Assembly: GCA_042562855.1 (NCBI GenBank)
Contig: JBHPNE010000002.1
Span: 7,643 to 71,642 of the forward strand
Reading direction: 5' to 3'
Length of the DNA: 64,000 bases
From: Elusimicrobiota bacterium
Lineage (GTDB): Bacteria > Elusimicrobiota > Endomicrobiia > Endomicrobiales > JAPLKN01
Shown in pieces: positions 3,628-52,568 of this stretch. The notes beneath the pieces were generated by a model. It made no database searches. It worked only from the letters and a program-made list of their open reading frames with translations, and was not told the origin of the DNA. The translations under genes were made by a program, and so were the position numbers. The stretch's first letter is position 1, and each line of letters opens with the position of its first letter.

Positions 3628-3631
3628 CTAT

Positions 3632-4396: not shown

Positions 4397-4443
4397 AATT
4401 AATCTCCTTTAAAATAAAACCCTGGACACTATAATAGCATTTT

Positions 4444-6521
<2,078 letters not shown>

Positions 6522-10300: not shown

Positions 10301-13300
10301 TTAAAAAAAGAAGCAAAGAAAGTCTTAAAGAGAGAATTAAAAGATAAGGAACTAGATCTAATTTATGACATAATATCCATTAATGCAAGAATGTATCCCG
10401 GTTATATTTCAAAAAACGATATGTTACAAATACTTGCTGAAGAGATTAAAATGATTATTAATAATTTTAATAATGTGTTTGGCAAGCTACCTTCCGAAAA
10501 AGAGTTGAGCTTATTTTTTGAAAATATAAAATTGAGCCCCGATATTCAAGAGACAGAATCGGAAATGAACAAGATAGTAGAAAAAATACTTAAAGTAAAT
10601 GAGATGTATGACAAATATTTCAATCGTGAACCTGATATCGAAGAATTAATGTTTATTATAGGCCAAATAAATAGCAAGAAAAATAAGGATGATATTATTG
10701 CTGGTATAGAAAAAATACTTGAAAGCATAAAAATAATAGTTAAAGAGTATACACATGAAAAAGAACTTACAAGAAACGAAATTATCTATATTTACAAAGA
10801 GGAGCTAAAAGCCAGCAAACCAAACAAGGAAAAAATATATTTGAAAATGTTGTTAATTCAAAATATATTTAGGCAAAATGTTAAAAGACTTCCCAACGCT
10901 AGAGAAATGAAGTTAATTTCATACAAAACAGAAAGTCAGGAGGAGATAATTGAAAGAATAGAACAAATATCTCTGGTAAGAAAATATGTAAAAGACGAAA
11001 TAAATTATTTACATTTAATGGAGCTAACAGAAATATTAGTAAACAATATCTTAGACATAAAAAAAGGTGACAGGAAGCGCAAGATAACTAAAATATTAAA
11101 AAACTTGAAAATACTTAAGGATGTTTATAGGGAAATATTTGGTTTGCCCGTAATTATACGGGATGCGGAATCTTACAGGAGACAAATCGGAGAAGAATTT
11201 AGTGAGCAAACGGTAAGAGAATATTTATTGAACGTAAAATCACAAAAAGATGAAATTAAAAGGGTTATGGAAATACTGGCAATATTATACGACGAGGGAA
11301 TTACCGGAGTAAAAAAACAAGAATTTATCGATGCGATTGCATACCAATACGGTGTAAATATTGCGAATCTGTTCAGAGAATCATTAATTGACGGCATGGA
11401 ATATATGATAGAATCCCCGGTTACAAATAATATTGATTTCAAAGTATCAGATGAGTTAAAAAGTAAATACGGCGATAAGAATAAAGACAATACCGAATTT
11501 ATATTGAAAAGGATAAGTGAAGCGATATATTTGAAACAAATAGATGACATGCTTGAGGATAAACTGGAGATCACAAGCAGTCTCATTTCACAAAGAGATG
11601 ACCATTTGACTTTTAAAATACGAATAAAAAATGAAGTTGACGAAAAAATGATTATATTTCCGATAAGTAAAAGTAAGAAAAAATATTTTGAAATTGAATA
11701 TCAGATGCTTAAAAAACTCGGGAGTCTGCTCGGTACATTGGAAGTATCGGCAGAAACAGAAGAAATATGCATGAGAAGCGGAAAGTTGGAAGCAATAATA
11801 ATGGAAGACAAAATCGATAAGGAGCAATATGAAACCTTACAAATGATATTAGAGTTTCACATAGAACGGGCCTTGCAAATAGCAGCCGGTAATAATGAAA
11901 TTAGCATATTTAATATTGATGAATATAAAGACAATTATGAAGATGTTTCAAAAGATGCTGCAGAAACATTAAAAAATATAATAATCGAGGCAAAAGAAAT
12001 TTTAGGAAGAAACCCTAGTCTTAAGGAAATATTGGGGATCTCAAAAATTTACTTGAAAAAGCCGCATATAACATCAATTGGGGTTTCTGTTAAAACGTAC
12101 GTAGGAGAGATAACGGAAAAGAGAGCAATAAGGCTAGCGTTCGCTGTGGGTATCGTTAGAGCTTGGCTGAATGATGGCGTTGATACAGATGAATTGTGCA
12201 AAACTTTATATTTAAAATTGATAGAAAACATAAAATCGGAGAAAGAAATATTTGACGATATTGAAAATATTGCAGTAGAATACTTTAGCAGTAACCCTAA
12301 TGTCGCTTTCAAAAATGAATTTAAGAAACAGTATAACTTGGAACAAAAAAGTAACGAGGAAATTATTATCGGTATATTGGAAGATGTATTTGGATCGGAA
12401 TATTTACCGTATAAAGCTGAGCTAATAAAGTTGCGAATGGCGGAAATAGAATTTGATAAAAGGGCGCCTCTGGGAAGGAATATTGTAGAAGTATGGATTA
12501 ATGGGTCACAAAAGGGAATGTTTGATGTAATGTCAAAATTAAAATATGCAAATTGGAGAAAGCTGGAATCAAGCCTCATTAGTATTTTAGATATAAATGC
12601 GGTAAAGGAAATAAAAGCTTTGGAAAAATATAATTCAACTTTCGTTGTCGATGAATCGAAGTACAAAAATTTATTAGACAGAGTTACAAGCTATTTGTCA
12701 AAATTCAAATTATCATATAGCAGCAATATTGATAGCGAAAAATCAAAAAAAATAATAGGAGATCTGGAAAACTTAAAACATGGCATCAAAAATGCACTAT
12801 TAGAATATTACAAAAACTTTGGCATAAATCGAGGAGATAATTTAAATAATGATGTATCTAAATGTTTGCGGACTGTAGTTTTACACGGTGAAGATCCGGA
12901 AGAGGTAGTTAAAAGGTTAGGTTTAAAAGTTTTAAGTAATATGGGGCTTGAAGGCGCACAAGGACAAGCACAGCAGGTGGAACTCACTCAACCAAAAACA
13001 ATTGAGGAAGCGGTTAAAGATTTTACTTCCCAAAATGGCAGTCAAAAAGAAATCAAGGCCCAAAATATTGCGGTAAAACTCGGGAAAAGGTATGAAAATG
13101 AAATTACTTTAGAAAAATTAAAAAACCGTGAAATATTTAAGACAATTAAAAATCTTGTGAAAGATGAGTTCTATAAAAGTGACGAAATGATAAGGTTGAT
13201 AGTACTATATGCGGCTCTATACAAGGCTCCTCGCACAGAGGCATTCAAGCTAGCATTCAGATCCAAAAAATTTGTTGATGGGCATAAAAACTTCAACGTA

Positions 13301-16300
13301 AAACAAAAAGGCAAACTGCTAGAAAAAACCAAAGAGATCCAGGAAAAAGGTTATAGTCTGAAAGTGGCACGTGGGCTTGCAATTATTGCAGCAATTGCAG
13401 CATTTGCAGTTACATTTGCAGTATTTGTTATACCGATTGCATTTATAAAATTAGTAATGAGTATGGTTACTGTGACCATAGCCTTTTTTGTGCCCCCGCT
13501 CCCATATTATAAAAAAATAAAAGGGATACATTTTGAAGAGAATTTAGAATTTCTTAAAACTGGAAAAGGCTTACTTCTTATGCAAGAGGATGGAAAAGAA
13601 AGCGCAGAATTAACTCTTGTAGAAAAGCTGAAAAAGAAATTTACTACCCCTAAAACTATAGATTTATCCACATTTGATTTTGATGCAATGGTTAAATTTG
13701 CAAACGAAAATAAAAAAAGTAATATGTCCTCGGATGTAATATTTGTATGCGTAATCCATGCGTCTATAGAAATTTATGGTCGTTACCAAAATAGTATCAA
13801 TGTACAATTAAAAGAAAAAATAAGTGAGAAAATTATTTACACTTCTTCAGGAGAAGACCTTAGAAAATTATTTAGTGAATTATTGAATTATAATCCTGAT
13901 ATTAAAGCTATGTCTGATTTAGAATTAAAAATAGATTCAAAAATAATTCGAGAATTTGTTAATAAAAGTATAGATGATGCCATAGAAAAACATGAACATA
14001 AAGGGTTGGTAATGCAAATAAAAGATGATATTTTAGAACAAATATCTTACAAGCAAAGAATTTTGGAACAAATTCTGGAAATAATACCCGATGAGCTAAA
14101 AAAAGGTATTACTGCAGAAAAAATACAGGAATCAGTTATTACTGATAATATTGATAATCAGTACAGGTTAAAAAACAACCTGCCCCCAACAATAGTTTTT
14201 AGCGGTGACTTATTCAAGGGATCGTTAAAAGAAACTCCTGACTATATTGCTTTCACTATTGATAAAGAATTTGTAGCAGTAAATACTGTTTTTGGAGAAT
14301 TTGGAAAAGGGGGATTAAGATATTATCCGCCTTCTTCAGAAGAATTTTATGACAGCAAGATTAAAGGAGAAGCTGTAAAACAAGTTTTTATAGAAGATAT
14401 TGATCTTGCAAATGCTATGGATTTAAAAAATATATTTGCAGATGTATTTTTCACTGGTGGGAAAACAATTATTTTAGCAAAACCTACCGTTAAAAAGGAG
14501 GAAGCATTAAGAACACATAAAGATGGAATCATTGAACGTTGGGCCGCTTCTTCAATAATGGCAGGTATGCTCTGCACGCATTACATAGCCGGTCCAGATA
14601 TGAATGCAGGTGACAATGATATGCAGAGGTTAGTTGAAATAGCAGATGCTGTTCAACGTGCTTTATATGAAATGGATCCTGAAAAATATGCCCACTTTAG
14701 AGAACCTTTAAGAGCCACAACTAGTACACCAGACGGATTTTCGCATATGAATTGGCAGGTAACAAGTACAACAGTGTTGTTTGCGCTTCTAACATTACTT
14801 CAGGATAAAAAGGTATGCGAAAAATATGATATTAAAAAAGACGAAAATGGAGATATCAGTATTATTATACAGGGCTTCGGAGATGTTGGAAGTGGTATAG
14901 TAAAAATACTGTATGATACTATAAGGTCCGAAAAAGAGATTATTAAAATTGACAATATCGAGTATGATGTTGATATTATTGAAAAAAATAGAATTTCTCC
15001 AAATCAAACAGAAATTAACGGAAGGAAATACAAAACAAAAAAAGTAAATGAAGATTACATACTACGTCCTGATTATGGAATAAAGGTTGTTGGATTGACT
15101 ACCAGTTGGATGAATGATGAGAATAATCCTGAAATTGGTGGTATATACAACGAAAATGGCTTAGATCCGGACGAATTGATACGGTTGAGAGAAAAAATAG
15201 AAAAATATGGTACAACATCGGTAAATCTTCATAAAGATTATAATGATAAAGAAGATACCGGTGTAACAGTAAGAGGGAGTAGCCGTGACGTGCTAACAAA
15301 GCCAGCCAACTTTTTAATTCCTGCAGCAGGGCCGTCGCAATTTACAAGCAGAGAATTAGAGCCTGACCCACAAGCTATAATAGACAACGGTTATGTTCTT
15401 GTTGAGGAGCTCGATGTAGATGGCGTAATTGAAGGAGCCAATGATTCTTTCAAGAAAGGTGTTGCGGAAATATTTCATCATGTTTTGCATAAGTTATTTT
15501 TGCCAGGTCCAATGTGTAATGCAGGCGGAGTACAGACATCTCAAGATGAATGGACGTACATTATTTTGATTGGATTGGAGGAAGTAATAAAAAATATGCT
15601 AAGTCTAAGAGAAATAACACGTTCAAAAATTACCACTTTAACCATTTATAATATACGAAGAATTTTAGAGGAGTTGAAAAAATCCGAATACAAAAAAACC
15701 CCATCAGATATTTTAGACGAATTTGTAAATTCTATTAGAGATCAAATGAAAAACATTGATGAATATGATCAGATTATTATTGATCGAATTACTAATACTA
15801 TTATTGATAAATTTCGTAATAGAAAAGATATTGCAAAAATAATTGCAGAATTTACTTATGCAAGAAGAAAAGCAATGAATAATATTGAAGTATCGGACGA
15901 AGCGATAGATGATATTATTCAAAATATTAAGCAAGGAGATCATTTTAAGGCCAGGTCATCAGCATATGAGCTTAGGCTATTGGATCTTAATAGACTATCG
16001 GCTAAGAAAAGATATGCATTAGTTATGAGATTAATAGGAATTGTAAGGGATATAGGATTATCGTATAAAATTCGCGGCGCAGTAGTTGACAGTTTATCTT
16101 CTATTGCAATAAACACTCCTGATACTATTGAGGGGCAAAGATTGTCTGATGCCATAAAGCAAAGTCTGAACTCATTAATTAATAATCCTAAATTCCTTAA
16201 TCTGTATCCATATATTTGGTCGACTAATCTTAGGATCAACCATTTTAAAGTTAAACATGATGAAAAAATTGAGCAGGGAAAACTGCCAAATGTAGAATCA

Positions 16301-19300
16301 TTAGGTTTTCTAAAAAAGCATGGAACATCTGGCTGGCGCAAAGGCTTAAAAGCTTCTTGGGAACAGGATTTAGCTTGGGAACAGGATCTAACAAATCTTG
16401 CTATTGAAATGAAGCTCGAAAAGAATTTTCTTAAAAGATCTCATAAAAGAGCGTTTATCATTGAAGTACAAAAAAAAGTAGAAAAATACTTCTATTCACT
16501 CAACAAAGATAGAAATATACAGAAAATAAAAGATGAAAAAGAACCTGGAATATTCAATACTCCTGTTCTCGCAACTTACAATCGAGAATTTAAAAATGAA
16601 ACAATGAGGTATGCATTGCGCCATGGGCTTTTGTCTAAAGTTCCTACAGTGGGGTATCTTCGTGAAAATATTGAGAAGTATAGAGAGCATTATGAAGCAT
16701 TTGATTATTCCGGTGATAGTGCAAGTGCATCACGGTTGACGGTTGAAAACATGAAAGCGTTGGAAATAGTGGTGGAGATGGCTGAGAATGATGAAATTGA
16801 TAATGATACAAAGGTAGATATTGGTTTTATGAATTGTTCAATGAAAGATGAAAAAAGGATAGTAGTGTATAGGTTTAAGGGAAAACACGTGATAGAAACT
16901 CAGAAATATGAATTAAACAGTGCAGGCGATAGCGTTGTGCAGATTGGGGAAATACTAGAAGTATACACTTTAGATAAGTTTAGAAATATTAACGACGCTG
17001 AGATTAAAGAAAAGTTAGTTCATTTGTACAACAATGGAGTATTGATGTATTACCTAGAAAAATTTGTAAAACTAGAAGGCAATGAAAACAATATTCAAAT
17101 TCTTAATAACATTAAGAGAGTGTTAGAAAAGTTCAAATGGTCTAAAGCCAAAGAAGGCTTTGAGCCTGGCGATGTTGCACTAGCATTTCATAGCCAAGGA
17201 TATAGAATAGGTAAAATATTTGGTGATGCTAATTTGTCACTTATTACAGACACTCGTCAAAAAAAGGACAAGTTGCCCTTTGTAAATGAATCGAGTATTA
17301 AAAAGGCCATTGAATTCTTTAAAGAGCCTAACAAATCCGAGCAAGAAGAAATAAGCAACTTTTTTGATAATTTCGAAGAAAATTATGGATATAAATGGGA
17401 CGAAGCCCTCGGCAGTACCATAGTTCAGCAAATTGCAGGTGCAGGGGAATATGTAAGCATTCCGTATGACCACTTTGTAAAAATATATCTTTGGGCAGCA
17501 TACAAAATAGCTCCGTATAAGGAAGACATAAGAGATAAATCGTTTGCCAAGGGGCATATACACTATACTCCGGATCAAATAAAGGAAGTAGATAACGATG
17601 TTGAAAAAAGTATTGCAAAAATTGAAAGTATAGATGATCTTGTTATGGACCTCATAATTTCTTTCGTTGACTATTCTCTGATTCCAGAAATTCAGAAAGA
17701 AGCTACAAAATTAGCGGAAAGCATTTCAAAAAACATTAAAGATGGAATGGAGTCCATACTTCATCTTAAACACAATATAGAGACAGTGCCAGGTGAAGGA
17801 TTGCCTTGGGTGCAAGATGAAGATAGTGAAAATCTAGAACAACTAAAACAAGGTATTTTTGATAAAATAATGAAAGCAGAGGAATCTTCTCTCAAACCAC
17901 ACAAACCATATTATGATGAAGATGAATCAAAAAAACAGGCAAAAGATCTTTCTGAGGCAATAATTAAAAAAGACACTGATGATATTCGTTTTTATGTGAA
18001 AAAAATAGTGTTAAGATATGCTGGAGCGGATTCTGAGCATTTTCAAAGTACCTATTTTGACATAGTCAGGTACTGCAAAAAACTTGCTTGGTATCTTGGA
18101 GAATTGAAAGAAATAGAGGAATATTCACCGTATTTTGAAGTGATAACAGTAGCAATGGTGCAGTCATATGAAATGATAATCCCAATTATTGAACAATCTA
18201 TCATAACATTAAACGAAGAAAAAAATGATAATTACTGGACTAAGGGAAATGCAAAGGCAATAACGGAAGGATTAGGGGGGGTTACAGAAGGAGTCAATAA
18301 TTTATTAACAGACTTTAATAAAAAATTTGTTACCTCAAATATGGTTAAAATTTGTAAGGATTTGAAAGGAAAAGCTGATAAACTCGAAAAAAGTACAAAG
18401 GAATTCTTGAAACACATGGATGCAGTGATTGAACTTATGGAACTTATTAAAATAGTGATAGTGGATGAAAAAAATGTTCCGTTTGATAAGCTTAAGCTTG
18501 GTGAGGATTTGAAAGGTAAGTATATCATGAAAGTTGGTTTGGTAGAGATTATATGGGGTACCGATAAGGATAAAGTCCTTGGCATGCTCCGTGAGTTTGT
18601 GACACATGATTCTCGTAAATATGTAAAGCATGAGTTAATTTATATTTTAATAGAATACATAGGAAATACATTTAAACTTGATGCAGCCTTTTTTAATCAT
18701 GATGATGTGAAAGCGTTTATTCCTGAGCTTGTGCGTAAAAAAATAATTAAAAATATCAAAGAGGGAGAAAAATGGTATAAACAGACAATACATGACCCGC
18801 TTATTGTGGAAATATTGGAAGAAAGTTATAAAATAAAAGGTACGGCAAATAGACATGCACTAAACAATTTAGTCGAAGGAATATTTCTAAATGATAAAGA
18901 TGCAATCATTTATGGTATCAGAGAGTTAACAGCGGACAACATAAAGAAATCTGAATCGTTTGAAGAAAAATATGGCGATGCAATACAGTTTTGTAATGAT
19001 TATATTTATTTTATGGGTAAATTGAAAGGCAGAGTTGAATTTGAATCACATTTTAAGGCAATAACAGTGGCTATGGCTCAGGCGTATAGAAACATAGCTT
19101 CAATTGCGACCGAAGCGATAAAAAAGTTGGAAGAAAATGAATATGAAGAGCAATCAGTTGCAGCAAACAGGAATGCGATTTTGAAAGTATTGGAAGAATT
19201 GGACAAGAATTCTAAGGAGCTTCTGACTGGATTTTCGCCTGAATATATTAATGATGAAATGGTTAAAATTAAGAAGGAACTTGAGAATGAAGTATGGCAG

Positions 19301-22300
19301 CTTATGGTGTCAGATATTCAAATTGATAATGAACTTAAAAGGTATGCGGAAAAGCTTAAATTTGATCCCGAAGAATTTATTTATCTCAAAGGGTTATATA
19401 AGCAATTTATAGAAAGCGTTGGGAAGAAGGAGGTTGCAAAGATATATCTCGGAGACAATTTCAAAAGTGCATCGCAAATGTCAGAAACAGAGAGGAGAAA
19501 ATGGTTTGGTCCCGAATATAATGATATTAAAAAAGATCATAAAAAAAATGTTAAAGCTGCCAAGACAGTAAATGTTATAGAAAAACGTATGAATGGAGGA
19601 ATTTGGACATCTGCTCTGGAAAAAATGGAATATTTAAAGAGAATATTGAACGATTTGTCTGATAGGGGAGGAAGGTTTACAAAAGATGGAAAATGTTTCA
19701 TTGGCCCAAAATCTACGGATCTTTTCTTTGATGTCGAAGGAGTTATCTATATTGATAGCGAAGGCAAGGAAGGATTGCGTACAGTAAAAGTAAATATATC
19801 AGAAGCAAGAATATTGCAGTTGCTAGAGTCAGTTGAGAGAAAAGAATATGCTAGTGTTTCCATACAACAATTGGCAAGTCAAAAAACAATAGATGCTATA
19901 AATGACCTATACGATACAATCTATTTGTACGACAGGATGGATGATAGGATCCCCAGTGATAAGAAGCGCGCTTATAAGGAAATACTGGAAGAATATGAAA
20001 TGTATAGGGAGCCGTTAATCCAGGGAACCCTTCCGACCATTGATCCCAAAACAAATAGATTATCAGAAAAATTTCTTGCACCCGGAGGACATGGATATTG
20101 GGCTTTTAAAGAGTTCTTAACCATTCTAGGGGTAGAAAAAGAGGAAGCTGAAAATATTATTGTTGTTATAGCTAATGAGGACGGGCTTAATAATTTATAC
20201 GATCAGAATTTAATAGGGTATATGAAACGCACTGACCTTCCGGTTATGTTACTCTCGACAACAAGAACAGCTTTAGATAATAAAGGAGGTTTATTTGGAA
20301 TATTAGAACGTATTCTTGCAATGCTAGAGGCAAAGGAAGCAGAATTATCAGGCAGAGATAAACTTGGAATGTTTTATAAAATGGGACTTATACCGGGTTT
20401 TGGAGAATTGGGCAAAGAACGATTCAATCTTAATACGTCATTGTTTAATGTTGAAAAACTTTCTCCGCTTCTGAAAGAGCTTGTTGATGATATAATTGGC
20501 AAAGAGCGGTTTTATGAAATTATAAAACCTCCATTATTGCAAAATATTAAAAAAGGAGAAGTTGGAAATCCTAATGATCCACCAAGAATTCAGATGGAGG
20601 GATTGTTGGCATCAGTTATTTTAGAACTTAACAGTTATTTTTTATTATTAGGAGATAGTCCAGAAGATAGTAGAGTAAAAAATTTGCTTAGAACAAAAGG
20701 AATATTAAGAAAAAATGATAAGGGGGAAGAGATTGTTCGTTTTGTTGAAGTTATCAATATAGACACTGAAGATAGGACAGATTTCTTTACTCCTATAAAA
20801 ACACCGATTGATTTTTGCTTACAATACAATAGTGATTTATTTGGAGTTAATGCAAAGACATGGAAATTAAAATATCAGAAAAAGGGTGCATTGCCTGCCT
20901 TTCAGCTACATCCTTTCTATAACAGTCTAGACCAAATGGAAATAGCATTTGGTAATACAAGTACAGTTGGTCTTAAAGCACTCACAATAAATGGCAAAGT
21001 ATATTTTCCTGACACAATATTGGAAGGAAATGTATTAATGGCGTGTTTTACCGATGAACCATTTGATTTAACGCTTCAAGAGAACAGAGAACAATTGATA
21101 GAAGTTTTTGATTTGGCACTTCAAGAGAACATGATAGAAGTTGGTGGAGGATCTGGGATAAGCGAGGTAGATGGAAAACTTAAATTAAAAAATATTGCGA
21201 TAACAATCGACAAAGATGGAAGAATTTCTGTTAATGGAATGGGTAAACTTTCTGAAGAAAAAATGCTGATTTTGCCCATAACAAAGAAAATTTCTGCAAG
21301 AATAATTAGATTGTTTGGAGGAGATCCCGCAAAGCATCAGAAAGTCTATAAAGCTTTGGCTTTCATTCTGGCACCTATAATAGAAACGGTTCTATTAATA
21401 TTTTATTACCTCCCATCTGTTTTTTCAAAATCTACTGAAGACCATCCAACGGGCCTTTCAAAATTCGCTGAAGACCATGACCCTGCGACACAAGAAGAGA
21501 GAGGTCAGCTTAAAAAAGGGGTAAAAGCTGTTGTAAAAACGGGCCTTCTTTTTGCATTTGCTGCAGGGATTTATTTCTTATCTTTATTCATATTGAACCC
21601 TTCATTAGCTTTGATAGCATCTAATTGGTTATCGAACGCTCTAGAAATATTAGTTTTGTTTGTTGTAGGATTAGTTGCGGGACACGCCGGAGTAAACATT
21701 GTAATTTGGAGGAAGCAGAAGCATTTAATTATTAAAAGAGATAATGACACTATAATACAGGTTGATTCTCCTGACGACGGAGCAAAATTCGCTGTTGATA
21801 AACTTGCGAGAACTATCAGGGAAAATGATATTATAGGCAAGGAAACAGTGGTAATGTTAGCTACTGGTGGTACTATGGAGCCGTTTTATAACGAACTTGT
21901 ACGCAGAAACAAATTGAGCTCAAAACATAAAAATTATCTTAATCTCTCTAACTTGATTATTTTTAATTTAGACGAATATGAAGGAATTGAAATTTTCAGA
22001 AATGAGATTTTTGAAAATTTAATAGAAGAAACAAATGTAAATCCTGATAATTTCTATTTCTGGTATGGTAAAAATCCGATAAAAGAACAAATAGAACGAA
22101 TGGAAAAACTGATTTCAAACTACGGCGGGATTGATTTTGCTTTCGTAGGTATAGGCGCAAACGGCCATGTAGGGAAAAATGAGCCTGGGACAAATCCGGA
22201 AGTTTCTGGAGCAGTTGTGATAAGTCCGCAAACAAGGCGTGACAACGCCAGGGCGTTTGATAATAAAGAAGAATTAGTCCCGGAAAAGTGGTTCGGTTTT

Positions 22301-24922
22301 GGCTTGGAGCAGATTTTTGCAGCCAAAGAAATTTATTTAATGGTATACGGTCATAGCAAAGCAGGGGCAATATTAAAAACTCTAAATGGGCCGGTTACGG
22401 ACAATGTCCCGGCAACCTACTTTAGAAATCATCCGAACATGCACTATGTTTTGGATAAAAAAGCTTCATCTTATCATTTAATATTTGAACAAGTGGTAAA
22501 AATGCTGGAGGATCAAAAAAAGACAAATGTAGGCATGTTATATGGCGGATCAATAAGGGGCATTATTGTAGGGTATCTAGAATCTCGTTGTCCAATAAAT
22601 GAAATTGCCCCGGATCTTGGAAAAGATTTTGGCATAGCTGTTTCAAAGCAATATGGGAAAGACGATTACCTAAATTCATCTGAAATTGAACATGCAAGAG
22701 ATTTGGCGAATCTTGGCGGTGCAAGAGTTGTTGTTGCTATGCCCTTGCCCGAAGGAATAAACAAGAGAAACTTTAAAGAGCATTCCCTAATAAATATGTG
22801 TGATACAACCGAGAAACTATTAGGGTTTCGTATTGTTGGCAAAGGAAGATCAAACGTGTATGCTACCGAAATCAAGACAAATAAAGGCAAAGTAGCGGTA
22901 TTTTTCTATAACAAAGCAAAAGTGGAACATGGTTTTGAGATAATGCATTGGATAACAGAAATGCCTGTTACGTTAGAGGTTTTGCATAGGTCCTTTAAAA
23001 ATTTTAACTTAAAAGTAATTGAAACTGATAGACCAATATCCTTGGAAGATTTTGATATCAGTAAAAATTTTGAAAATTCTATCATAGTGTTTAACAAAAT
23101 TGGAGACCTCAAAAAAGATAGAGTCAAAACTGGTTATGATATGACGCTAACAGAAAAAACCGATATATACGATTATTTTATTCTTCTAAATAATTTTGCA
23201 AACAGAAAGAAAGAAGAATTTACTGCTTCCGATCCTATTATTTCTGAAACTATAAATATTAACGAAAATATTGAAGAATTGGAATCTTCTTTATCGGAAG
23301 AAAGCCTGGATAACATGCAAAAAAGGAGTGTCGATACTATAGTGCTCAGGTCTTTGCCTGAACAATTATCATCAGAATGGTTAGAAAAATTGAGCAACGC
23401 AATAAATTTGGCCCATAACAAAAAATTGAAAGTGGTAATTGACTATACAGTCAATAAAAAGTTCACGCAAAATAACTACATGGAAAATTTTTCTGCCGAC
23501 ATGAAAGTTATTCTTAAAAAATCAAACGCGGACGGCGTAAGATTGGATTTCTCAAGCTTGAAGTTAGGTTTAGATAATTATCCAAGATTAGGAATGCTTG
23601 CTATTAAAAAATTCAAAAGCACCATAATAAAATTGAGAACCATAATAATTAAAACAAAACCGGGGGCAATAGTTGGTAGTATTTTGCCTGAGATTTTATT
23701 CCCTGAGACAATGAAGCCTAAGATTCCAATTAAAATCACTCCTGAATCTTCTAAGATGACTGATGGTGAAAAATTAGTGCGGAAGATATATCTTGAAGAT
23801 TTAGACAGGCATTATTTTGAAAAATACAAGAATAGTTATCTTGAAGAAACGGATTTGGAAATTTCGAAACTCTTTAAGAATCTTAATATTAAAAAGGTTG
23901 TAAGAGTTTTATTCGGAAACAATATTCCAGAAAATACATCCAATTCCTGGCTTGAAATCTGCTTAAATGACAACAAGGGCTTAAAAGTGCCTTTAGGCGG
24001 CTTTGGTGTTGATATCAAGGAATTAGAAACCAAATTGTCAAAAGATTTAATAAAGGATGTGGAGATTTTAGGATTGCCGGCTGAACTGGCCAAAGAGATT
24101 TTTGAGACATATGAAGCTCGTTCACTAATAAGCAATATAACTCAACTGTTTAAAAATAAGATTGAAAGCAGAAAAAATAGTCCTGATTATAGATTTCAAA
24201 AGGGAAGACACAGAGCTCTTAATATTAAGAAAAGATACATAGTGCCATACACAGGCAGTGAAAAAATAGCAACTATTGTTCAAGTTTTAAGTGAATATCT
24301 AAGCTTAGATGATGAAAATGTGGAATCGTGGTATAAGAAAAACGAAGCAGTATTGAAAGCATTATTAGAAAAGCATGATTTGAAAATCTTGAATAACTCT
24401 GCAGATGTGAAAAAACAATCACAGATTCATGAAGCAGCCGGATATTTGCTCGGATCCGCCGAAAGAGTTCTTGCTGAAGACCTGATAAAAAAGGAAAACT
24501 TTACAAAGAAGCACGCCGAGTTATACGCAATGGCGCACGTTAAAACTCTTTTACAACCTCATCTTATTCATGCTGATTCCATGAAGAGTGATTTTTCAGG
24601 TTTAAATCCTGAGACAGTACATAAAGCATCAAATTATTTTGATCAGTATAAAAAAGCGATGGCCCTGGCAAATGAAGCTATACGTTTACATGGCGAAAGC
24701 GGGAAATATACTGCTGAAGAAGTATACGATATTGCGGATGAAGCAATAAACCTATTGGCTGATTTACTTGAAAACACGACACCAGCAGGTCAAGCTGCGA
24801 CTACGCTTCAGGAGCTCCTTGATGTTTTTGGAGACAGAGAATCAGGATCCTTAGCTGAAAAAATCGGCAAAGAAGCCATGATCAGTATCGAAGCGGTGCA
24901 AAGCATAACCACTGCTGCATAA
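7355..24922 (+). CDS. Giant multidomain membrane protein (5,855 aa), function unknown
   Basis: Single open frame of 17,568 nt. GGAGG lies 6 nt upstream of ATG 7355, and a terminator lies about 25 nt after the TAA. No other frame in the same span stays open beyond ~205 codons. Contains TM segments and three enzyme-like domains (listed as sub-features). Confidence 0.85.
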   Translation: MSKIKRIFEKVSERYLKKLSIPEPFVEVFVNFKKGIAVTTALAFLFTSVFAQSIFAFTDTKDFSDKKVRETLNTFTIPYTIGRVTDGKYYGSKKIVINIQDLHCHAEVQGNINKIIGLLDDAYSISKVYIEGSSGDLDTSWVKAIKNEQLRNKIVETFVESGRLTGAEYYSIQKNKPKMLKGVENERIYKNNVVRLGKILDQREEIAAQIPAVKQELSRLKDKYYSRYNKRLEKLLTRYGNNEINTEKFYRLLEKLAKKSKVDFYEFDTIKKLISLMKEQKRLKYKIISKQLASYVKHLKDKMPYATYKLLLEKTSNFSKLDEVYTHLKKLSYAYKINLSTKYSELNKFFDFIDANQKINPIDLVSEERKLIQKIHQKTSQNIAEGEIAFISDFFAYLEEYLNNKISANDYEYFQRNSKDFKKLWAKYVYSEKITNLAPYYDLFDVFYKVNIERNKYFIENTLGNIPVLNSGISPVADINHIDETLKSLKNAKEIIVLVTGGFHTEGLERLLSRREVSYLVITPNVTKDTKFADTVYNKFAKQQAKRFASQTMALEAYSKSLATGTMDEIKLKVVRDFAQDQLKIAFKGKKPEKIAEDINSVFQNKENNLEGSFSYFPEKSSEKGNKYYFEYKYKDKTVSLLLSAEDEITIFDTKFHYFKYLLNSKEIVKKEDEKAVSWDLNKIMQSAQAKNLVDLINELVELEEESGQYLTEFNKSIKVVFIEMVKNKIRSQQTLEDIAEDFGFSRDDTIQFRKSLASTGLAFATRQEESLTLKSTYRKYKSLYNFFHRKKNHLPEDWTNREKYGDEYVKQMKNAEIWLAPIVEYAKIRRISNAWNEKKKELINEFFGGHEWNEDQEKRKYAKGGIKDISESMEKGSVIGTTLGIIIGLTIQITLWMIFSIEKMSALGVVTMLYIATPVIFIILASSLGAFIGHAVSHRKYDKEYGTKTKAEKEKLEREGKEVIEAPLTTDVTTFELLELYLKKEAKKVLKRELKDKELDLIYDIISINARMYPGYISKNDMLQILAEEIKMIINNFNNVFGKLPSEKELSLFFENIKLSPDIQETESEMNKIVEKILKVNEMYDKYFNREPDIEELMFIIGQINSKKNKDDIIAGIEKILESIKIIVKEYTHEKELTRNEIIYIYKEELKASKPNKEKIYLKMLLIQNIFRQNVKRLPNAREMKLISYKTESQEEIIERIEQISLVRKYVKDEINYLHLMELTEILVNNILDIKKGDRKRKITKILKNLKILKDVYREIFGLPVIIRDAESYRRQIGEEFSEQTVREYLLNVKSQKDEIKRVMEILAILYDEGITGVKKQEFIDAIAYQYGVNIANLFRESLIDGMEYMIESPVTNNIDFKVSDELKSKYGDKNKDNTEFILKRISEAIYLKQIDDMLEDKLEITSSLISQRDDHLTFKIRIKNEVDEKMIIFPISKSKKKYFEIEYQMLKKLGSLLGTLEVSAETEEICMRSGKLEAIIMEDKIDKEQYETLQMILEFHIERALQIAAGNNEISIFNIDEYKDNYEDVSKDAAETLKNIIIEAKEILGRNPSLKEILGISKIYLKKPHITSIGVSVKTYVGEITEKRAIRLAFAVGIVRAWLNDGVDTDELCKTLYLKLIENIKSEKEIFDDIENIAVEYFSSNPNVAFKNEFKKQYNLEQKSNEEIIIGILEDVFGSEYLPYKAELIKLRMAEIEFDKRAPLGRNIVEVWINGSQKGMFDVMSKLKYANWRKLESSLISILDINAVKEIKALEKYNSTFVVDESKYKNLLDRVTSYLSKFKLSYSSNIDSEKSKKIIGDLENLKHGIKNALLEYYKNFGINRGDNLNNDVSKCLRTVVLHGEDPEEVVKRLGLKVLSNMGLEGAQGQAQQVELTQPKTIEEAVKDFTSQNGSQKEIKAQNIAVKLGKRYENEITLEKLKNREIFKTIKNLVKDEFYKSDEMIRLIVLYAALYKAPRTEAFKLAFRSKKFVDGHKNFNVKQKGKLLEKTKEIQEKGYSLKVARGLAIIAAIAAFAVTFAVFVIPIAFIKLVMSMVTVTIAFFVPPLPYYKKIKGIHFEENLEFLKTGKGLLLMQEDGKESAELTLVEKLKKKFTTPKTIDLSTFDFDAMVKFANENKKSNMSSDVIFVCVIHASIEIYGRYQNSINVQLKEKISEKIIYTSSGEDLRKLFSELLNYNPDIKAMSDLELKIDSKIIREFVNKSIDDAIEKHEHKGLVMQIKDDILEQISYKQRILEQILEIIPDELKKGITAEKIQESVITDNIDNQYRLKNNLPPTIVFSGDLFKGSLKETPDYIAFTIDKEFVAVNTVFGEFGKGGLRYYPPSSEEFYDSKIKGEAVKQVFIEDIDLANAMDLKNIFADVFFTGGKTIILAKPTVKKEEALRTHKDGIIERWAASSIMAGMLCTHYIAGPDMNAGDNDMQRLVEIADAVQRALYEMDPEKYAHFREPLRATTSTPDGFSHMNWQVTSTTVLFALLTLLQDKKVCEKYDIKKDENGDISIIIQGFGDVGSGIVKILYDTIRSEKEIIKIDNIEYDVDIIEKNRISPNQTEINGRKYKTKKVNEDYILRPDYGIKVVGLTTSWMNDENNPEIGGIYNENGLDPDELIRLREKIEKYGTTSVNLHKDYNDKEDTGVTVRGSSRDVLTKPANFLIPAAGPSQFTSRELEPDPQAIIDNGYVLVEELDVDGVIEGANDSFKKGVAEIFHHVLHKLFLPGPMCNAGGVQTSQDEWTYIILIGLEEVIKNMLSLREITRSKITTLTIYNIRRILEELKKSEYKKTPSDILDEFVNSIRDQMKNIDEYDQIIIDRITNTIIDKFRNRKDIAKIIAEFTYARRKAMNNIEVSDEAIDDIIQNIKQGDHFKARSSAYELRLLDLNRLSAKKRYALVMRLIGIVRDIGLSYKIRGAVVDSLSSIAINTPDTIEGQRLSDAIKQSLNSLINNPKFLNLYPYIWSTNLRINHFKVKHDEKIEQGKLPNVESLGFLKKHGTSGWRKGLKASWEQDLAWEQDLTNLAIEMKLEKNFLKRSHKRAFIIEVQKKVEKYFYSLNKDRNIQKIKDEKEPGIFNTPVLATYNREFKNETMRYALRHGLLSKVPTVGYLRENIEKYREHYEAFDYSGDSASASRLTVENMKALEIVVEMAENDEIDNDTKVDIGFMNCSMKDEKRIVVYRFKGKHVIETQKYELNSAGDSVVQIGEILEVYTLDKFRNINDAEIKEKLVHLYNNGVLMYYLEKFVKLEGNENNIQILNNIKRVLEKFKWSKAKEGFEPGDVALAFHSQGYRIGKIFGDANLSLITDTRQKKDKLPFVNESSIKKAIEFFKEPNKSEQEEISNFFDNFEENYGYKWDEALGSTIVQQIAGAGEYVSIPYDHFVKIYLWAAYKIAPYKEDIRDKSFAKGHIHYTPDQIKEVDNDVEKSIAKIESIDDLVMDLIISFVDYSLIPEIQKEATKLAESISKNIKDGMESILHLKHNIETVPGEGLPWVQDEDSENLEQLKQGIFDKIMKAEESSLKPHKPYYDEDESKKQAKDLSEAIIKKDTDDIRFYVKKIVLRYAGADSEHFQSTYFDIVRYCKKLAWYLGELKEIEEYSPYFEVITVAMVQSYEMIIPIIEQSIITLNEEKNDNYWTKGNAKAITEGLGGVTEGVNNLLTDFNKKFVTSNMVKICKDLKGKADKLEKSTKEFLKHMDAVIELMELIKIVIVDEKNVPFDKLKLGEDLKGKYIMKVGLVEIIWGTDKDKVLGMLREFVTHDSRKYVKHELIYILIEYIGNTFKLDAAFFNHDDVKAFIPELVRKKIIKNIKEGEKWYKQTIHDPLIVEILEESYKIKGTANRHALNNLVEGIFLNDKDAIIYGIRELTADNIKKSESFEEKYGDAIQFCNDYIYFMGKLKGRVEFESHFKAITVAMAQAYRNIASIATEAIKKLEENEYEEQSVAANRNAILKVLEELDKNSKELLTGFSPEYINDEMVKIKKELENEVWQLMVSDIQIDNELKRYAEKLKFDPEEFIYLKGLYKQFIESVGKKEVAKIYLGDNFKSASQMSETERRKWFGPEYNDIKKDHKKNVKAAKTVNVIEKRMNGGIWTSALEKMEYLKRILNDLSDRGGRFTKDGKCFIGPKSTDLFFDVEGVIYIDSEGKEGLRTVKVNISEARILQLLESVERKEYASVSIQQLASQKTIDAINDLYDTIYLYDRMDDRIPSDKKRAYKEILEEYEMYREPLIQGTLPTIDPKTNRLSEKFLAPGGHGYWAFKEFLTILGVEKEEAENIIVVIANEDGLNNLYDQNLIGYMKRTDLPVMLLSTTRTALDNKGGLFGILERILAMLEAKEAELSGRDKLGMFYKMGLIPGFGELGKERFNLNTSLFNVEKLSPLLKELVDDIIGKERFYEIIKPPLLQNIKKGEVGNPNDPPRIQMEGLLASVILELNSYFLLLGDSPEDSRVKNLLRTKGILRKNDKGEEIVRFVEVINIDTEDRTDFFTPIKTPIDFCLQYNSDLFGVNAKTWKLKYQKKGALPAFQLHPFYNSLDQMEIAFGNTSTVGLKALTINGKVYFPDTILEGNVLMACFTDEPFDLTLQENREQLIEVFDLALQENMIEVGGGSGISEVDGKLKLKNIAITIDKDGRISVNGMGKLSEEKMLILPITKKISARIIRLFGGDPAKHQKVYKALAFILAPIIETVLLIFYYLPSVFSKSTEDHPTGLSKFAEDHDPATQEERGQLKKGVKAVVKTGLLFAFAAGIYFLSLFILNPSLALIASNWLSNALEILVLFVVGLVAGHAGVNIVIWRKQKHLIIKRDNDTIIQVDSPDDGAKFAVDKLARTIRENDIIGKETVVMLATGGTMEPFYNELVRRNKLSSKHKNYLNLSNLIIFNLDEYEGIEIFRNEIFENLIEETNVNPDNFYFWYGKNPIKEQIERMEKLISNYGGIDFAFVGIGANGHVGKNEPGTNPEVSGAVVISPQTRRDNARAFDNKEELVPEKWFGFGLEQIFAAKEIYLMVYGHSKAGAILKTLNGPVTDNVPATYFRNHPNMHYVLDKKASSYHLIFEQVVKMLEDQKKTNVGMLYGGSIRGIIVGYLESRCPINEIAPDLGKDFGIAVSKQYGKDDYLNSSEIEHARDLANLGGARVVVAMPLPEGINKRNFKEHSLINMCDTTEKLLGFRIVGKGRSNVYATEIKTNKGKVAVFFYNKAKVEHGFEIMHWITEMPVTLEVLHRSFKNFNLKVIETDRPISLEDFDISKNFENSIIVFNKIGDLKKDRVKTGYDMTLTEKTDIYDYFILLNNFANRKKEEFTASDPIISETININENIEELESSLSEESLDNMQKRSVDTIVLRSLPEQLSSEWLEKLSNAINLAHNKKLKVVIDYTVNKKFTQNNYMENFSADMKVILKKSNADGVRLDFSSLKLGLDNYPRLGMLAIKKFKSTIIKLRTIIIKTKPGAIVGSILPEILFPETMKPKIPIKITPESSKMTDGEKLVRKIYLEDLDRHYFEKYKNSYLEETDLEISKLFKNLNIKKVVRVLFGNNIPENTSNSWLEICLNDNKGLKVPLGGFGVDIKELETKLSKDLIKDVEILGLPAELAKEIFETYEARSLISNITQLFKNKIESRKNSPDYRFQKGRHRALNIKKRYIVPYTGSEKIATIVQVLSEYLSLDDENVESWYKKNEAVLKALLEKHDLKILNNSADVKKQSQIHEAAGYLLGSAERVLAEDLIKKENFTKKHAELYAMAHVKTLLQPHLIHADSMKSDFSGLNPETVHKASNYFDQYKKAMALANEAIRLHGESGKYTAEEVYDIADEAINLLADLLENTTPAGQAATTLQELLDVFGDRESGSLAEKIGKEAMISIEAVQSITTAA
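7600..8940 (+). other. Giant ORF sub-region: possible Tiki/ChaN/TraB-superfamily-like bilobed domain with a long helical insert
   Basis: VINIQDLHCHAEVQ...VYIEGSSG near 7640-7750 and IIVLVTGGFHTEGL near 8841-8880 resemble the H/E ... GxxH signature of that superfamily. Motif-level only. Confidence 0.25.
9800..10190 (+). other. Giant ORF membrane module copy 1
   Basis: AEIWLAPIVEY ... FFGGHEWNEDQEKRKYAKGG ... two hydrophobic helices (VIGTTLGIIIGLTIQITLWMIF; ALGVVTMLYIATPVIFIILASSLGAFIGHAV). Confidence 0.6.
13185..13550 (+). other. Giant ORF membrane module copy 2
   Basis: LIVLYAALYKAPRTE ... KFVDGHKNFNVKQKGKLLEK ... two hydrophobic helices (GLAIIAAIAAFAVTFAVFVIPIAFI; LVMSMVTVTIAFFVPPLPYY). 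Confidence 0.6.
14180..15700 (+). other. Giant ORF domain: Glu/Leu/Phe/Val-dehydrogenase-like (GDH-like)
   Basis: GKGGLRYYP; LANAMDLKNIFADVFFTGGKTIILAKP; IAGPDMNAGDNDM; IIIQGFGDVGSG; GIYNENGLDPDEL; LIPAAGPSQ; VIEGANDSF; LPGPMCNAGGVQTSQDEW. These are collinear with the canonical GDH motif order. Confidence 0.7.
17938..19303 (+). repeat. Giant ORF internal duplication of a ~150-aa helical module (copies ~17938-18385 and ~18857-19303)
   Basis: FEVITVAMVQSYEMI vs FKAITVAMAQAYRNI; KKDTDDIRFYVKKI vs LNDKDAIIYGIREL; NNLLTDFNKKFVTSNMVKICKDL vs KELLTGFSPEYINDEMVKIKKEL. Confidence 0.7.
19480..21250 (+). other. Giant ORF domain: UDP-sugar pyrophosphorylase-like (UDPGP family)
   Basis: KRMNGGIWTS (compare KLNGGLGTSMG); LAPGGHGYWAF (compare PPGHGD); VVIANEDGLNN (compare VSNIDNLG); TTRTALDNKGGLFG (compare KTRADVKGG); FNLNTSLF; IQMEGLLASV; RTDFFTPIKTPIDFCLQYNSDLF (compare RSRFLPVKTTSDLLLVMSNLY); LTINGKVYFPDTILEGNV C-terminal beta-helix-like tail. 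Confidence 0.72.
21340..21725 (+). other. Giant ORF membrane module copy 3
   Basis: ALAFILAPIIETVLLIFYYL ... KFAEDHDPATQEERGQLKKG ... hydrophobic helices (GLLFAFAAGIYFLSLFILNP; ALEILVLFVVGLVAGHAGVNIVIW). Confidence 0.6.
21765..22480 (+). other. Giant ORF domain: glucosamine-6-phosphate deaminase / 6-phosphogluconolactonase-like (NagB fold)
   Basis: VVMLATGGTMEPFYNEL; IIFNLDEY; FAFVGIGANGHVGKNEPG; RRDNARAF; IYLMVYGHSKAGAILKTLNGPV; VPATYFRNHPNMHYVLD. Collinear with E. coli NagB, with the Asp/His/Glu catalytic positions present. Confidence 0.8.
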
Positions 24923-25129: not shown

Positions 25130-25387
25130 ATGGAAAATAATGTTGGCCAAAAAGACACTAAGCAGGTAATGGATATCAGGGAGCTTTCTGAATATCTCGG
25201 TATCGGTAAATCAAAGATTTACAACCTAATACGCAACAAAAAAATTCCTGCATCCCGCATTGGGCGGCAGTATAGATTTTCAAAAGAAGTTGTTGATGCT
25301 TGGCTTAAAGAAAGAATAATAACAACAAAAGAAGACGCAAATTTGTCCTTGTTCAAAAAAGAAAAAATAAATGAGAATAAAGGATAG
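25130..25387 (+). CDS. Excisionase-family / MerR-like helix-turn-helix DNA-binding protein
   Basis: 85 aa. MDIRELSEYLGIGKSKIYNLIRNKKIPASRIGRQYRFSKEVVDAWL is the typical HTH_17 pattern. Confidence 0.8.
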   Translation: MENNVGQKDTKQVMDIRELSEYLGIGKSKIYNLIRNKKIPASRIGRQYRFSKEVVDAWLKERIITTKEDANLSLFKKEKINENKG

Positions 25388-25462: not shown

Positions 25463-25726
25463 ATGGCAGAAAAAGTTGCTAAAGCAGGAGTAAAAAGAGT
25501 AGACGGGTATCTCTACTTCATTGACAAAGCTGGAGATATCTCTCGTGCAAAAATGGCTCGCGGAGGTAAGAAAGGCGGTCAAAAAGAAAAAGTAAAAAAA
25601 GTTGGAGTAAAGAAAGCATCAGGGTATCTTTACTTCATGGATAAAGCCGGTGATGTTTCCCGTGCGAAAATGGTTCGTCGCGGCGGCGGAAAGAAAAAGA
25701 AAAAAGCAAAGAAAAAGAAAAAATAG
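25463..25726 (+). CDS. Lysine-rich tandem-repeat miniprotein (hypothetical)
   Basis: 87 aa with a strong SD (AAGGAGGTG). Two copies of GVK+xxGYLYF(I/M)DKAGD(I/V)SRAKM(A/V)R. Poly-Lys C-terminal tail. Confidence 0.7.
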   Translation: MAEKVAKAGVKRVDGYLYFIDKAGDISRAKMARGGKKGGQKEKVKKVGVKKASGYLYFMDKAGDVSRAKMVRRGGGKKKKKAKKKKK

Positions 25727-41035: not shown

Positions 41036-41036
41036 A

Positions 41037-49637: not shown

Positions 49638-49648
49638 AATAACTAATT

Positions 49649-52566: not shown

Positions 52567-52568
52567 AC

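Follow-up and report, generated by a model that had tools for sequence, protein, structure and literature searches.

Why should an enzyme of amino-sugar catabolism that textbooks describe as soluble be found, apparently intact, in a giant protein and joined there to a membrane anchor? The question is raised by a stretch of 64,000 nucleotides from an Elusimicrobiota bacterium (NCBI GenBank assembly GCA_042562855.1, contig JBHPNE010000002.1, positions 7,643 to 71,642 of the forward strand), which is referred to below as the window and is numbered from its first letter. A single stop-free open reading frame (ORF) in the list compiled for this stretch occupies positions 7355..24922 of the plus strand, on which all parts of its product given below are also encoded. 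It specifies a protein of 5,855 residues, one segment of which resembles NagB, the glucosamine-6-phosphate (GlcN6P) deaminase/isomerase. The answer toward which we lean, with modest confidence, is that this segment is a NagB-type, non-allosteric domain of a multi-pass giant membrane protein, and that it is probably active, cytoplasmic, and engaged in amino-sugar processing as the cargo of a scaffold. Its catalysis, its side of the membrane, and its physiological role we infer from the features of the sequence and the predicted structure that are set out here, together with the alternatives that they allow.

A NagB segment within one reading frame

The original prediction, which was made from the letters alone, had placed the domain at 21765-22480, corresponding to residues 4804-5042 in the frame of the giant ORF. 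This frame and the end point hold good, but the start has to be moved by some 20 nucleotides upstream; in the structural model described below, the NagB fold covers residues 4798-5042 (21746..22480). The six motifs that had been quoted in support of the domain are all found in the frame of the giant ORF, once each and in order, with LATGGTMEPFY at nucleotide 21857, FNLDEY at 21962, GIGANGHVGKNEPG at 22148, RRDNARAF at 22235, GHSKAGAILKTLNGPV at 22349, and PATYFRNHPNMHYVLD at 22409. An open frame of 17.6 kb at 33% GC cannot have arisen by chance, and a public protein collection lists an identical product of 5,855 residues, called independently on an NCBI contig of 78.6 kb. The protein is rich in lysine (11%), isoleucine (10%), leucine (9.5%), and glutamate (9%). 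The GC content of the whole ORF is 33.1% (28% at third codon positions), that of the rest of the window is 37.3%, and that of its housekeeping genes is 36-41%; the NagB segment, at 36.9%, is nearer the housekeeping level than the giant ORF as a whole.

Is the segment truly part of the giant protein? It might be made separate by internal initiation or by processing of a polyprotein, or the fusion might be an artifact of assembly. A GGAGG sequence at 21708-21712, upstream of the domain, would be in keeping with internal initiation, and it has been suggested that giant proteins of Omnitrophota are processed by peptidase domains that they carry themselves. However, the linker that leads from the last membrane helix to the first strand of the fold contains no stop and no in-frame ATG, GTG, or TTG, and the next in-frame starts downstream of the GGAGG (GTG at 21848 and ATG at 21854) would cost the fold its first strand and helix. 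Separate translation of the segment, which the earlier reader had named as grounds for abandoning the proposal, therefore appears unlikely, and the public gene call likewise treats the region as one gene. As for processing, a Pfam scan of the giant ORF, carried out in six overlapping slices over its whole length and a seventh over the NagB region, revealed no peptidase domain. An artifact of assembly is hard to reconcile with the smooth course of GC content across the junction of membrane module and NagB, or with the recurrence of a module-then-NagB junction in independent assemblies, in the homologous proteins P0005, P0086/P0154, and P0007 that are introduced below. Taken together, we consider a separate or artifactual NagB segment very improbable indeed.

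Assignment to the NagB family

The match had been described as one to “NagB / 6-phosphogluconolactonase” and as nearly textbook, and a search with the Pfam family Glucosamine_iso (PF01182) had been suggested as a check. When scanned alone, the domain passes the gathering score of this family (31.3 bits vs. 27, E 2.4e-7, covering profile positions 5-218 of 225), whereas within a longer slice of 1,355 residues it falls slightly under it (26.3 bits). Among NCBIfam models the highest score is that of NF002557, with 152 bits (E 1.6e-44) against a family cut-off of 384. The nagB model TIGR00502 gives 134.4 bits (E 4.4e-39) and does not reach its equivalog cut-off of 236.9, and the other NagB equivalog models give 67-137 bits, all below cut-offs of 247-528. 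With scores under the equivalog cut-offs, the rule applied by NCBI bars automatic naming of the segment as NagB. The cut-offs of neighboring families are not attained either: the galactosamine-6-phosphate isomerase model AgaI (NF007291) gives 86.2 bits against 271, and the 6-phosphogluconolactonase model pgl (TIGR01198) gives 22.1 bits (E 9e-5) against 124.

Comparison with individual proteins is more telling. In a sequence search of the PDB, the 12 top matches are all GlcN6P deaminases (E 5e-30 to 1e-11), the best being NagB of Bacillus subtilis (2bkv, E 4.8e-30, about 30% identity), with lactonases confined to E > 0.1. When residues 4660-5855 served as the query of an exhaustive phmmer search, 3,774 proteins were returned, nearly all of them through the NagB part and 1,735 of them at E <= 1e-10; the highest identity to any NagB in the collection of 5.8 billion proteins is 35-39%. 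A word-indexed search with residues 4650-5855 gave three matches only, again all through NagB, the K/E/I-rich sequence having probably swamped the word filter.

The predicted fold points in the same direction. An AlphaFold2 model of residues 4640-5050, built from 72 homologs, has predicted local distance difference test (pLDDT) values above 90 over most of the domain and displays the Rossmann-like α/β fold of NagB. In Foldseek comparisons the model matches 2bkv with a TM-score of 0.91 and a root mean square deviation of 1.6 Å, and the scores for twelve NagB structures span 0.81-0.91. The top 26 matches are chains of the NagB family, of which 20 are named GlcN6P deaminases and the other six belong to entry 6nbg, whose deposited name is “hypothetical protein KP1_5497” but which the table of PDB sequence matches lists by name as a GlcN6P deaminase. 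Structures of Pgl rank under every NagB structure (E 3e-14 vs. 4e-24), and the 6-phosphogluconolactonases are some 8 orders of magnitude weaker than the NagB-family chains.

The segment is a member of the NagB superfamily, and hidden Markov models and structure both point to NagB and not to a different family of sugar-phosphate isomerases. Identity as a 6-phosphogluconolactonase was dropped in view of the 22 bits for pgl against 134 for nagB and the far weaker matches to lactonase structures. Homology to NagB is thus what survives of the initial description. Its lactonase half does not, and “nearly textbook” is too strong for a domain of 30-39% identity with sub-equivalog scores, a replaced phenylalanine (F146K), and a loop shortened by 7 residues, to which we now turn.

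The active site and departures from it

The domain was aligned with E. coli NagB and 153 relatives (155 sequences in all), and the E. coli numbering used here was checked against the literature. Retained are T41-G-G-T44, D72-E73-Y74, H143, N147-E148-P149, R172, and K208. The active-site Asp, His, and Glu that had been read from the DEY, GH, and NEP motifs are accordingly present, as D72, H143, and E148, and at the level of aligned residues both the catalytic set and the phosphate-binding set (TGGT, Arg, and Lys) are complete in the window copy. At position 141 the domain has Asn, which it shares with ∼90% of the relatives and with the B. subtilis type. Lost are the residues of the allosteric N-acetylglucosamine 6-phosphate (GlcNAc6P) site of the hexameric E. 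coli enzyme (S151 to T, R158 to G, and K160 to V), and the domain ends before the Y254 extension. With the allosteric residues absent, the domain belongs to the non-allosteric, monomeric type found in B. subtilis.

The most likely activity of such a domain would be that of a GlcN6P deaminase. With its canonical residues, it would catalyze the reaction GlcN6P + H2O <-> fructose 6-phosphate (Fru6P) + NH4+, in which the Asp of DEY would serve as the base, the His/Glu pair would open the ring, and TGGT, Arg, and Lys would bind the phosphate.

Several observations weigh against an active enzyme. Position 146, which is Phe in 149 of the 155 sequences, is Lys in the domain, and this is the sole Lys at that position in the alignment. 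About seven residues of the near-invariant PxxHPxSY loop that follows DEY are deleted, and the NagB scores lie under the equivalog cut-offs, as given above for TIGR00502. A further observation comes from P0005 (MCX5782634.1), a “hypothetical protein” of 5,223 residues from an Elusimicrobia metagenome-assembled genome (MAG) and the only protein that is colinear with the giant beyond NagB. The two align by BLAST with 26% identity (residues 4814-5842 of the giant with 4228-5209 of P0005), and both have a hydrophobic module, then NagB, then the remainder of a C-terminal cassette. The NagB domain of P0005 carries the substitutions Y74E, N147D, and R172E, and its 24% identity to that of the giant is the lowest within the shared cassette, the downstream regions being 27-32% identical. 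The sole positional ortholog thus points to relaxed selection and to a cassette that tolerates a degraded NagB.

These departures are what might be expected of a pseudoenzyme or sensor in which the NagB fold is kept for the binding of sugar phosphates or for structure, in the manner of the effector domains of SorC and CggR. Effector domains of the CggR type do occur among the distant structural matches, and the dehydrogenase-like and UDP-sugar pyrophosphorylase (UDPGP)-like regions elsewhere in the giant protein are extremely degenerate. The resemblance to CggR is, however, much the lesser one (TM-score 0.52 vs. 0.91 for NagB), and every known catalytic and phosphate-binding residue is in place in the window copy. 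Furthermore, the window NagB is closer to stand-alone enzymes (35-39% identity) than to P0005 (24%), which suggests that purifying selection still acts on its canonical site. We consider a pseudoenzyme unlikely, and a probably active, non-allosteric deaminase remains the reading that we carry forward.

Membrane attachment and orientation

Hydropathy analysis delineates an N-terminal segment at residues 36-56, followed by modules at residues 878-939, 2001-2051, and 4664-4690 plus 4725-4786. The N-terminal segment (taken here as residues 35-57, 7457..7525) comes after a K/R-rich head of 34 residues and may be signal peptide-like or a signal anchor, with a possible cleavage site at VFA/QS. Membrane module 1 (residues 878-939, 9986..10171) and membrane module 2 (residues 2001-2051, 13355..13507) are hydrophobic stretches of 62 and 51 residues, respectively, each of which probably forms a helical hairpin. 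Membrane module 3 (residues 4658-4785, 21326..21709) consists, in the AlphaFold2 model, of three long helices at residues 4658-4690, 4713-4747, and 4749-4777, and its hydrophobic run continues to W4785, the last hydrophobic residue. Then follows a short basic linker of 12 residues, RKQKHLIIKRDN (residues 4786-4797, 21710..21745), for which the confidence of the model is low, and the first core strand of NagB begins at residue 4798. The proposal that NagB stands directly after the third membrane module is borne out, as is the close spacing, although the distance from W4785 to residue 4798 is ∼12 residues and not about 15 codons after the last helix. A linker of this length would hold the active site of NagB within a few nanometers of the membrane.

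On which side of the membrane would it be held? A count of 1 + 2 + 2 + 3 = 8 helices from the K/R-rich N terminus, together with the basic linker, would place NagB and the ∼810-residue cassette behind it in the cytoplasm. Counted by hand, Lys and Arg around module 3 number 12 on the side of the loop and linker and 6 on the opposite side. The alternative is an extracytoplasmic domain, located in the periplasm or at the cell surface, that binds or converts a sugar other than the usual one, for example from the envelopes of prey or host.

A number of points tell against the cytoplasmic placement. For modules 1 and 2 the number of helices is taken from hydropathy alone, and its uncertainty could flip the parity. 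A lysine content of 11% blunts the positive-inside rule, and when the rule was applied to modules 1 and 2, every flank was lysine-rich and no side was favored. Three spans in module 3 set NagB across the membrane from the dehydrogenase-like and UDPGP-like regions, which leaves at least one cofactor-type fold either non-functional or located outside the cytoplasm. Four relatives (P0018, P0069, P0125, and P0012) carry signal peptide-like N termini (for example, MKHLSK-hydrophobic-ALA/PSS) immediately before NagB and transmembrane segments after it, and in P0018 the N-terminal hydrophobic segment aligns with the last helix of the giant (query residue 4759 onward). In L115, which belongs to the family of the giant itself, PGM/PMM and deaminase domains come straight after the N-terminal anchor with no further transmembrane segment. 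The signal peptide-like relatives and L115 suggest that such domains are exported. Moreover, the TIM, PGI, FBPase, PGM/PMM, and aldolase domains of the “Archaeovorins” of Omnitrophota, which are giants as well, have been predicted to be extracellular (10.1101/2023.11.21.568195).

The latter prediction comes with a caution from West-Roberts et al. that missed helices may give a wrong localization (10.1101/2023.11.21.568195), and there are three features of the protein itself that argue for the cytoplasm. TGGT, R172, and K208 are intact, which fits a phosphorylated substrate that is normally cytoplasmic; the linker is strongly basic (RKQKH..KR); and the parity of eight helices from a basic N terminus puts the C terminus inside. 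An extracytoplasmic NagB is, on this evidence, somewhat unlikely, and we retain a cytoplasmic domain as the preferred placement.

Possible roles of a membrane-tethered NagB

A plausible role for a cytoplasmic deaminase held at the membrane would be amino-sugar processing, in which GlcN6P derived from imported glycan or cell-wall material would be delivered to glycolysis. It counts against such a role that the 64-kb window contains no amino-sugar transporter, nagA, or kinase. Nor is there a stand-alone nagB or pgl in the window, the presence of which the original prediction had proposed to check.

The NagB reaction is reversible, and the domain might instead work in the anabolic direction, converting Fru6P and NH4+ to GlcN6P for the synthesis of UDP-amino sugars at the membrane, in concert with the UDPGP-like region and with a dehydrogenase-like region that yields ammonia. 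The cyst-wall pathway of Giardia would be an analog of this use. NagB, UDPGP-family, and Glu/Leu/Phe/Val (ELFV)-dehydrogenase-like regions are indeed combined in one polypeptide, and the GT2, PGM/PMM, and GH77 domains found in other members of the family make up a theme of sugar nucleotides and polysaccharides. Against this, NagB and the UDPGP-like region would be on opposite faces of the membrane given the three spans of module 3, the strong divergence of the UDPGP-like and dehydrogenase-like regions makes their activity doubtful, and the Pfam scan detected neither an acetyltransferase nor a mutase domain in the giant protein. We judge the anabolic use to be quite improbable, and processing of amino sugars toward glycolysis remains the role that we would propose.

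Relatives of the tethered NagB

A hydrophobic segment beside NagB is found in a minority of its relatives; a transmembrane-like segment lies within 80 residues of the domain in 10 of the 149 closest cluster representatives. One protein of this kind, P0007 (2,537 residues), has NagB beside a hydrophobic segment and also possesses the N-terminal domain of the giant. P0003 has a NagB domain that contains an insertion, together with an aldose epimerase domain. In a rough neighbor-joining tree, which lacks support values and in which long-branch attraction is possible, the window domain groups with P0005 and with other tethered or fused NagB domains.

The giant protein as a member of a larger family

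The question of what the tether belongs to is addressed by the N-terminal part of the protein. Residues 60-600 (7532..9154) form a conserved family domain of ∼540 residues with the invariant pattern VINIQDLH ... EG ... GGFH ... P. In JGI metagenome contigs at least 245 relatives of this domain were found, up to 45% identical to it, and in a comparison with 80 metagenome loci (29-45% identical) VINIQDLH, EG, and GGFH are invariant. No relative was found in Pfam or the PDB, even with a profile of 21 sequences, and an early guess that the domain is a TraB/Tiki-like protease was dropped as unsupported.

The ORFs that contain the N-terminal domain encode from 1.8 to more than 4 thousand residues, and conservation with the window protein is limited to the N-terminal ∼600 residues. 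The middles differ in their cargo, which may be GT2 plus HATPase_c, PGM/PMM plus cytidine deaminase plus DUF218, GGDEF plus GH77, or nothing recognizable. NagB is found in none of the 80 family loci, for which the DNA covered extends to at most 10 kb downstream, with many ORFs running past its end. At the C terminus, 25 of the 35 complete ORFs of the family end in -AA, typically as (I/M/L)L(S/A/T)AA, while -SA is found in four and -AG in three. The window protein ends in SITTAA (the tail ...TTAA being encoded at 24908..24919), P0005 in LLSAA, and P0018 and P0069 in VDMAA. The ssrA degradation tag ends in LAA, which the tail of the family resembles.

The window protein has both hallmarks of the family, in that its N-terminal domain follows a hydrophobic segment and its tail is -AA. 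It is a member of a large family whose giant envelope proteins have a constant N terminus, a middle that varies in its carbohydrate-related enzyme domains, and an -AA tail. The family is widespread, and it appears to be undescribed and without an assigned function. NagB would accordingly be one swappable cargo in a carbohydrate-themed family of scaffolds.

A bolder extension of this proposal is that the family, in Elusimicrobiota and their relatives, consists of membrane scaffolds for swappable sugar enzymes of which some, NagB included, are extracytoplasmic, and that the tail, of the form (L/I/M)xAA, is a shared signal for sorting or for degradation of the ClpX/Tsp type by which these proteins are controlled. 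If true, this would place sugar-phosphate chemistry within the periplasm or where two cells meet. It is a speculation to which we give little credence at present, and the more conservative view, in which NagB is a cytoplasmic cargo, is the one followed here.

Other regions of the giant protein

Beyond the membrane modules and the N-terminal domain, little of the protein is recognizable with confidence, and NagB is by far the best-preserved of its enzyme domains. Residues ∼2317-2734 (14303..15556) form a very divergent region resembling Glu/Leu/Phe/Val dehydrogenases (Pfam ELFV_dehydrog, E 2e-12; ELFV_dehydrog_N, E 0.002-0.006), with PDB matches that are marginal only. A likewise very divergent region at residues ∼4228-4575 (20036..21079) resembles UDP-sugar pyrophosphorylases (Pfam UDPGP, E 1e-9; yeast UGP1, 2i5k, E 0.001). 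At the metagenome locus L153, an upstream ORF of 3,238 residues contains two copies of the UDPGP-like region, with 24% identity to residues 3932-4624 of the giant. The giant ORF also contains an internal duplication of ∼150 residues (30% identity, pairwise E 4e-17), the two units of which lie at ∼17945-18385 and ∼18866-19306 (residues ∼3531-3677 and ∼3838-3984).

NagB heads the C-terminal cassette of ∼1,070 residues that is kept in one other Elusimicrobiota protein, P0005. The part that follows it (residues 5043-5855, 22481..24919) comprises an α/β domain without assignment, a stretch that may form a glycosidase-like TIM barrel, and helices at its end. A profile of the two sequences for this part found no matches in the index of 5.8 billion proteins, in PDB sequences, in GTDB genome contigs, or in JGI metagenome contigs, and an AlphaFold2 model from the two-sequence alignment has a mean pLDDT of 40 and is unusable. 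The only lead is a MupG_N/GH5-like stretch at residues 5312-5400 (23288..23554; VDTIVL ... KVVIDY ... DGVRLD), for which the Pfam matches are weak and sub-threshold (MupG_N at E 6e-4, with 19.9 bits where the cut-off is 24, and Cellulase at E 0.02).

Genes in the neighborhood

The neighbors of the giant ORF are ordinary genes of a bacterial chromosome, among them those for seryl-tRNA synthetase, BioA/BioD, PolA, Rho, SecA, Lnt, release factor 2 (RF2), and a Tad-type pilus. The best matches of the window SecA come from three MAGs of Elusimicrobia (68, 60, and 59% identity). Other phyla all rank lower, and an origin in Elusimicrobiota is indicated rather than one in Omnitrophota.

Downstream of the giant ORF, after a gap of 208 bp, there is a gene for an 85-residue protein of the HTH_17 type (excisionase/MerR-like) at 25130-25387. 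A small HTH_17 gene (L001, 15866-16060) also comes after P0003, an otherwise unrelated large NagB protein, and this may be coincidence. Farther on, at 25463-25726, there is a lysine-rich ORF of 87 residues that consists of two units of ∼35 residues, GYLYF(I/M)DKAGD(I/V)SRAKM...GGKK, and a poly-Lys tail, with no match in Pfam. The RF2 gene (60080-61181) contains a programmed +1 frameshift site, AGGAGG TCT CTT TGA A, at 60131; its first ORF (ORF0) ends in ...ALRRSL and a stop, and the main ORF goes on in the +1 frame. In the stretches 39905-41960 and 48780-53468 there are two weak matches to components resembling those of type IX secretion (CHU_C under the Pfam cut-off and PorP/SprF barely above it), which adjoin several unannotated ORFs, and a separate cluster of the Tad-type pilus genes, with RcpC/CpaB, a CpaF-like ATPase, and two TadB/C proteins.

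Comparison with known systems

The closest known counterparts of the domain are the monomeric NagB enzymes of B. subtilis (2bkv/2bkx) and Streptococcus mutans (2ri0/2ri1), with which it shares the fold, the catalytic and phosphate-binding residues, N141, and the lack of both an allosteric site and a C-terminal extension. These enzymes are free cytosolic proteins of ∼240 residues, whereas here the same unit constitutes residues 4798-5042 of a membrane protein of 5,855. Unlike them, it has F146K and a deleted HPxSY loop and misses the trusted cut-off of TIGR00502.

Fusions of NagB are not unusual in themselves. NagB-LmbE/PIG-L fusions (NF002557; P0001, P0002, P0023, and P0038) and NagA-NagB fusions (P0008 and P0010) are near neighbors in the rough tree and illustrate that NagB is often joined to other amino-sugar enzymes. 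In contrast to these, no PIG-L or amidohydrolase domain follows the window NagB, which also stays far under the NF002557 cut-off (152 bits vs. 384). It keeps the Arg at position 172, where the fusions P0001 and P0002 have Glu or Ser.

In its overall architecture the protein is more akin to the giants of Omnitrophota (10.1101/2023.11.21.568195; 10.64898/2026.06.07.730766). Both have very long ORFs with scattered membrane-spanning helices or a signal peptide, long unannotated stretches, and interspersed divergent domains for sugar phosphates and carbohydrates (in the Omnitrophota giants TIM, PGI, FBPase, PGM/PMM, aldolase, and glycosyltransferases), and both raise the same question as to the side of the membrane. 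Among the “multi-enzyme metabolic cluster” giants of Omnitrophota, 94% have membrane-spanning helices or a signal peptide (Nielsen & Lui 2026, 10.64898/2026.06.07.730766). The differences are equally clear. The window protein is from Elusimicrobiota, a phylum in which giant genes are reported to be common (PMC12057145) and very large genes, with products of at least 10,000 residues, are often detected (10.1101/2023.11.21.568195). It has 5.9 thousand residues as opposed to 10-147 thousand, and the Pfam scan of its whole ORF found no SecA-DEAD, HEAT, dockerin, TSP3, or peptidase C39 domain. Its family is set apart from the Omnitrophota giants by an N-terminal domain of its own and by the -AA tail. 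No mention of a NagB domain came up when the main texts of the two papers on Omnitrophota giants were searched by term.

The nearest parallel within Omnitrophota is provided by P0086/P0154 (MCM8757836.1 and MCM8800008.1), which bear the PGAP name “glucosamine-6-phosphate deaminase, partial.” As in the giant, their NagB has the full catalytic set, is located toward the end of a protein exceeding 1.2-2.5 thousand residues, and is preceded by a hydrophobic module. Unlike in the giant, the linker between the transmembrane segment and NagB is ∼55 residues long (vs. ∼12), and no similarity was found outside NagB. Being small, easily expressed, and easily assayed, the window domain offers a probe for both the activity and the membrane side of the enzyme-like modules in the giants of Omnitrophota, Elusimicrobiota, and related members of the Planctomycetes-Verrucomicrobia-Chlamydiae (PVC) group. 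Giant membrane proteins with metabolic enzymes as cargo are thus known in kind; what the locus described here adds is an example in a phylum, and in a protein family, where this had not been spelled out before.

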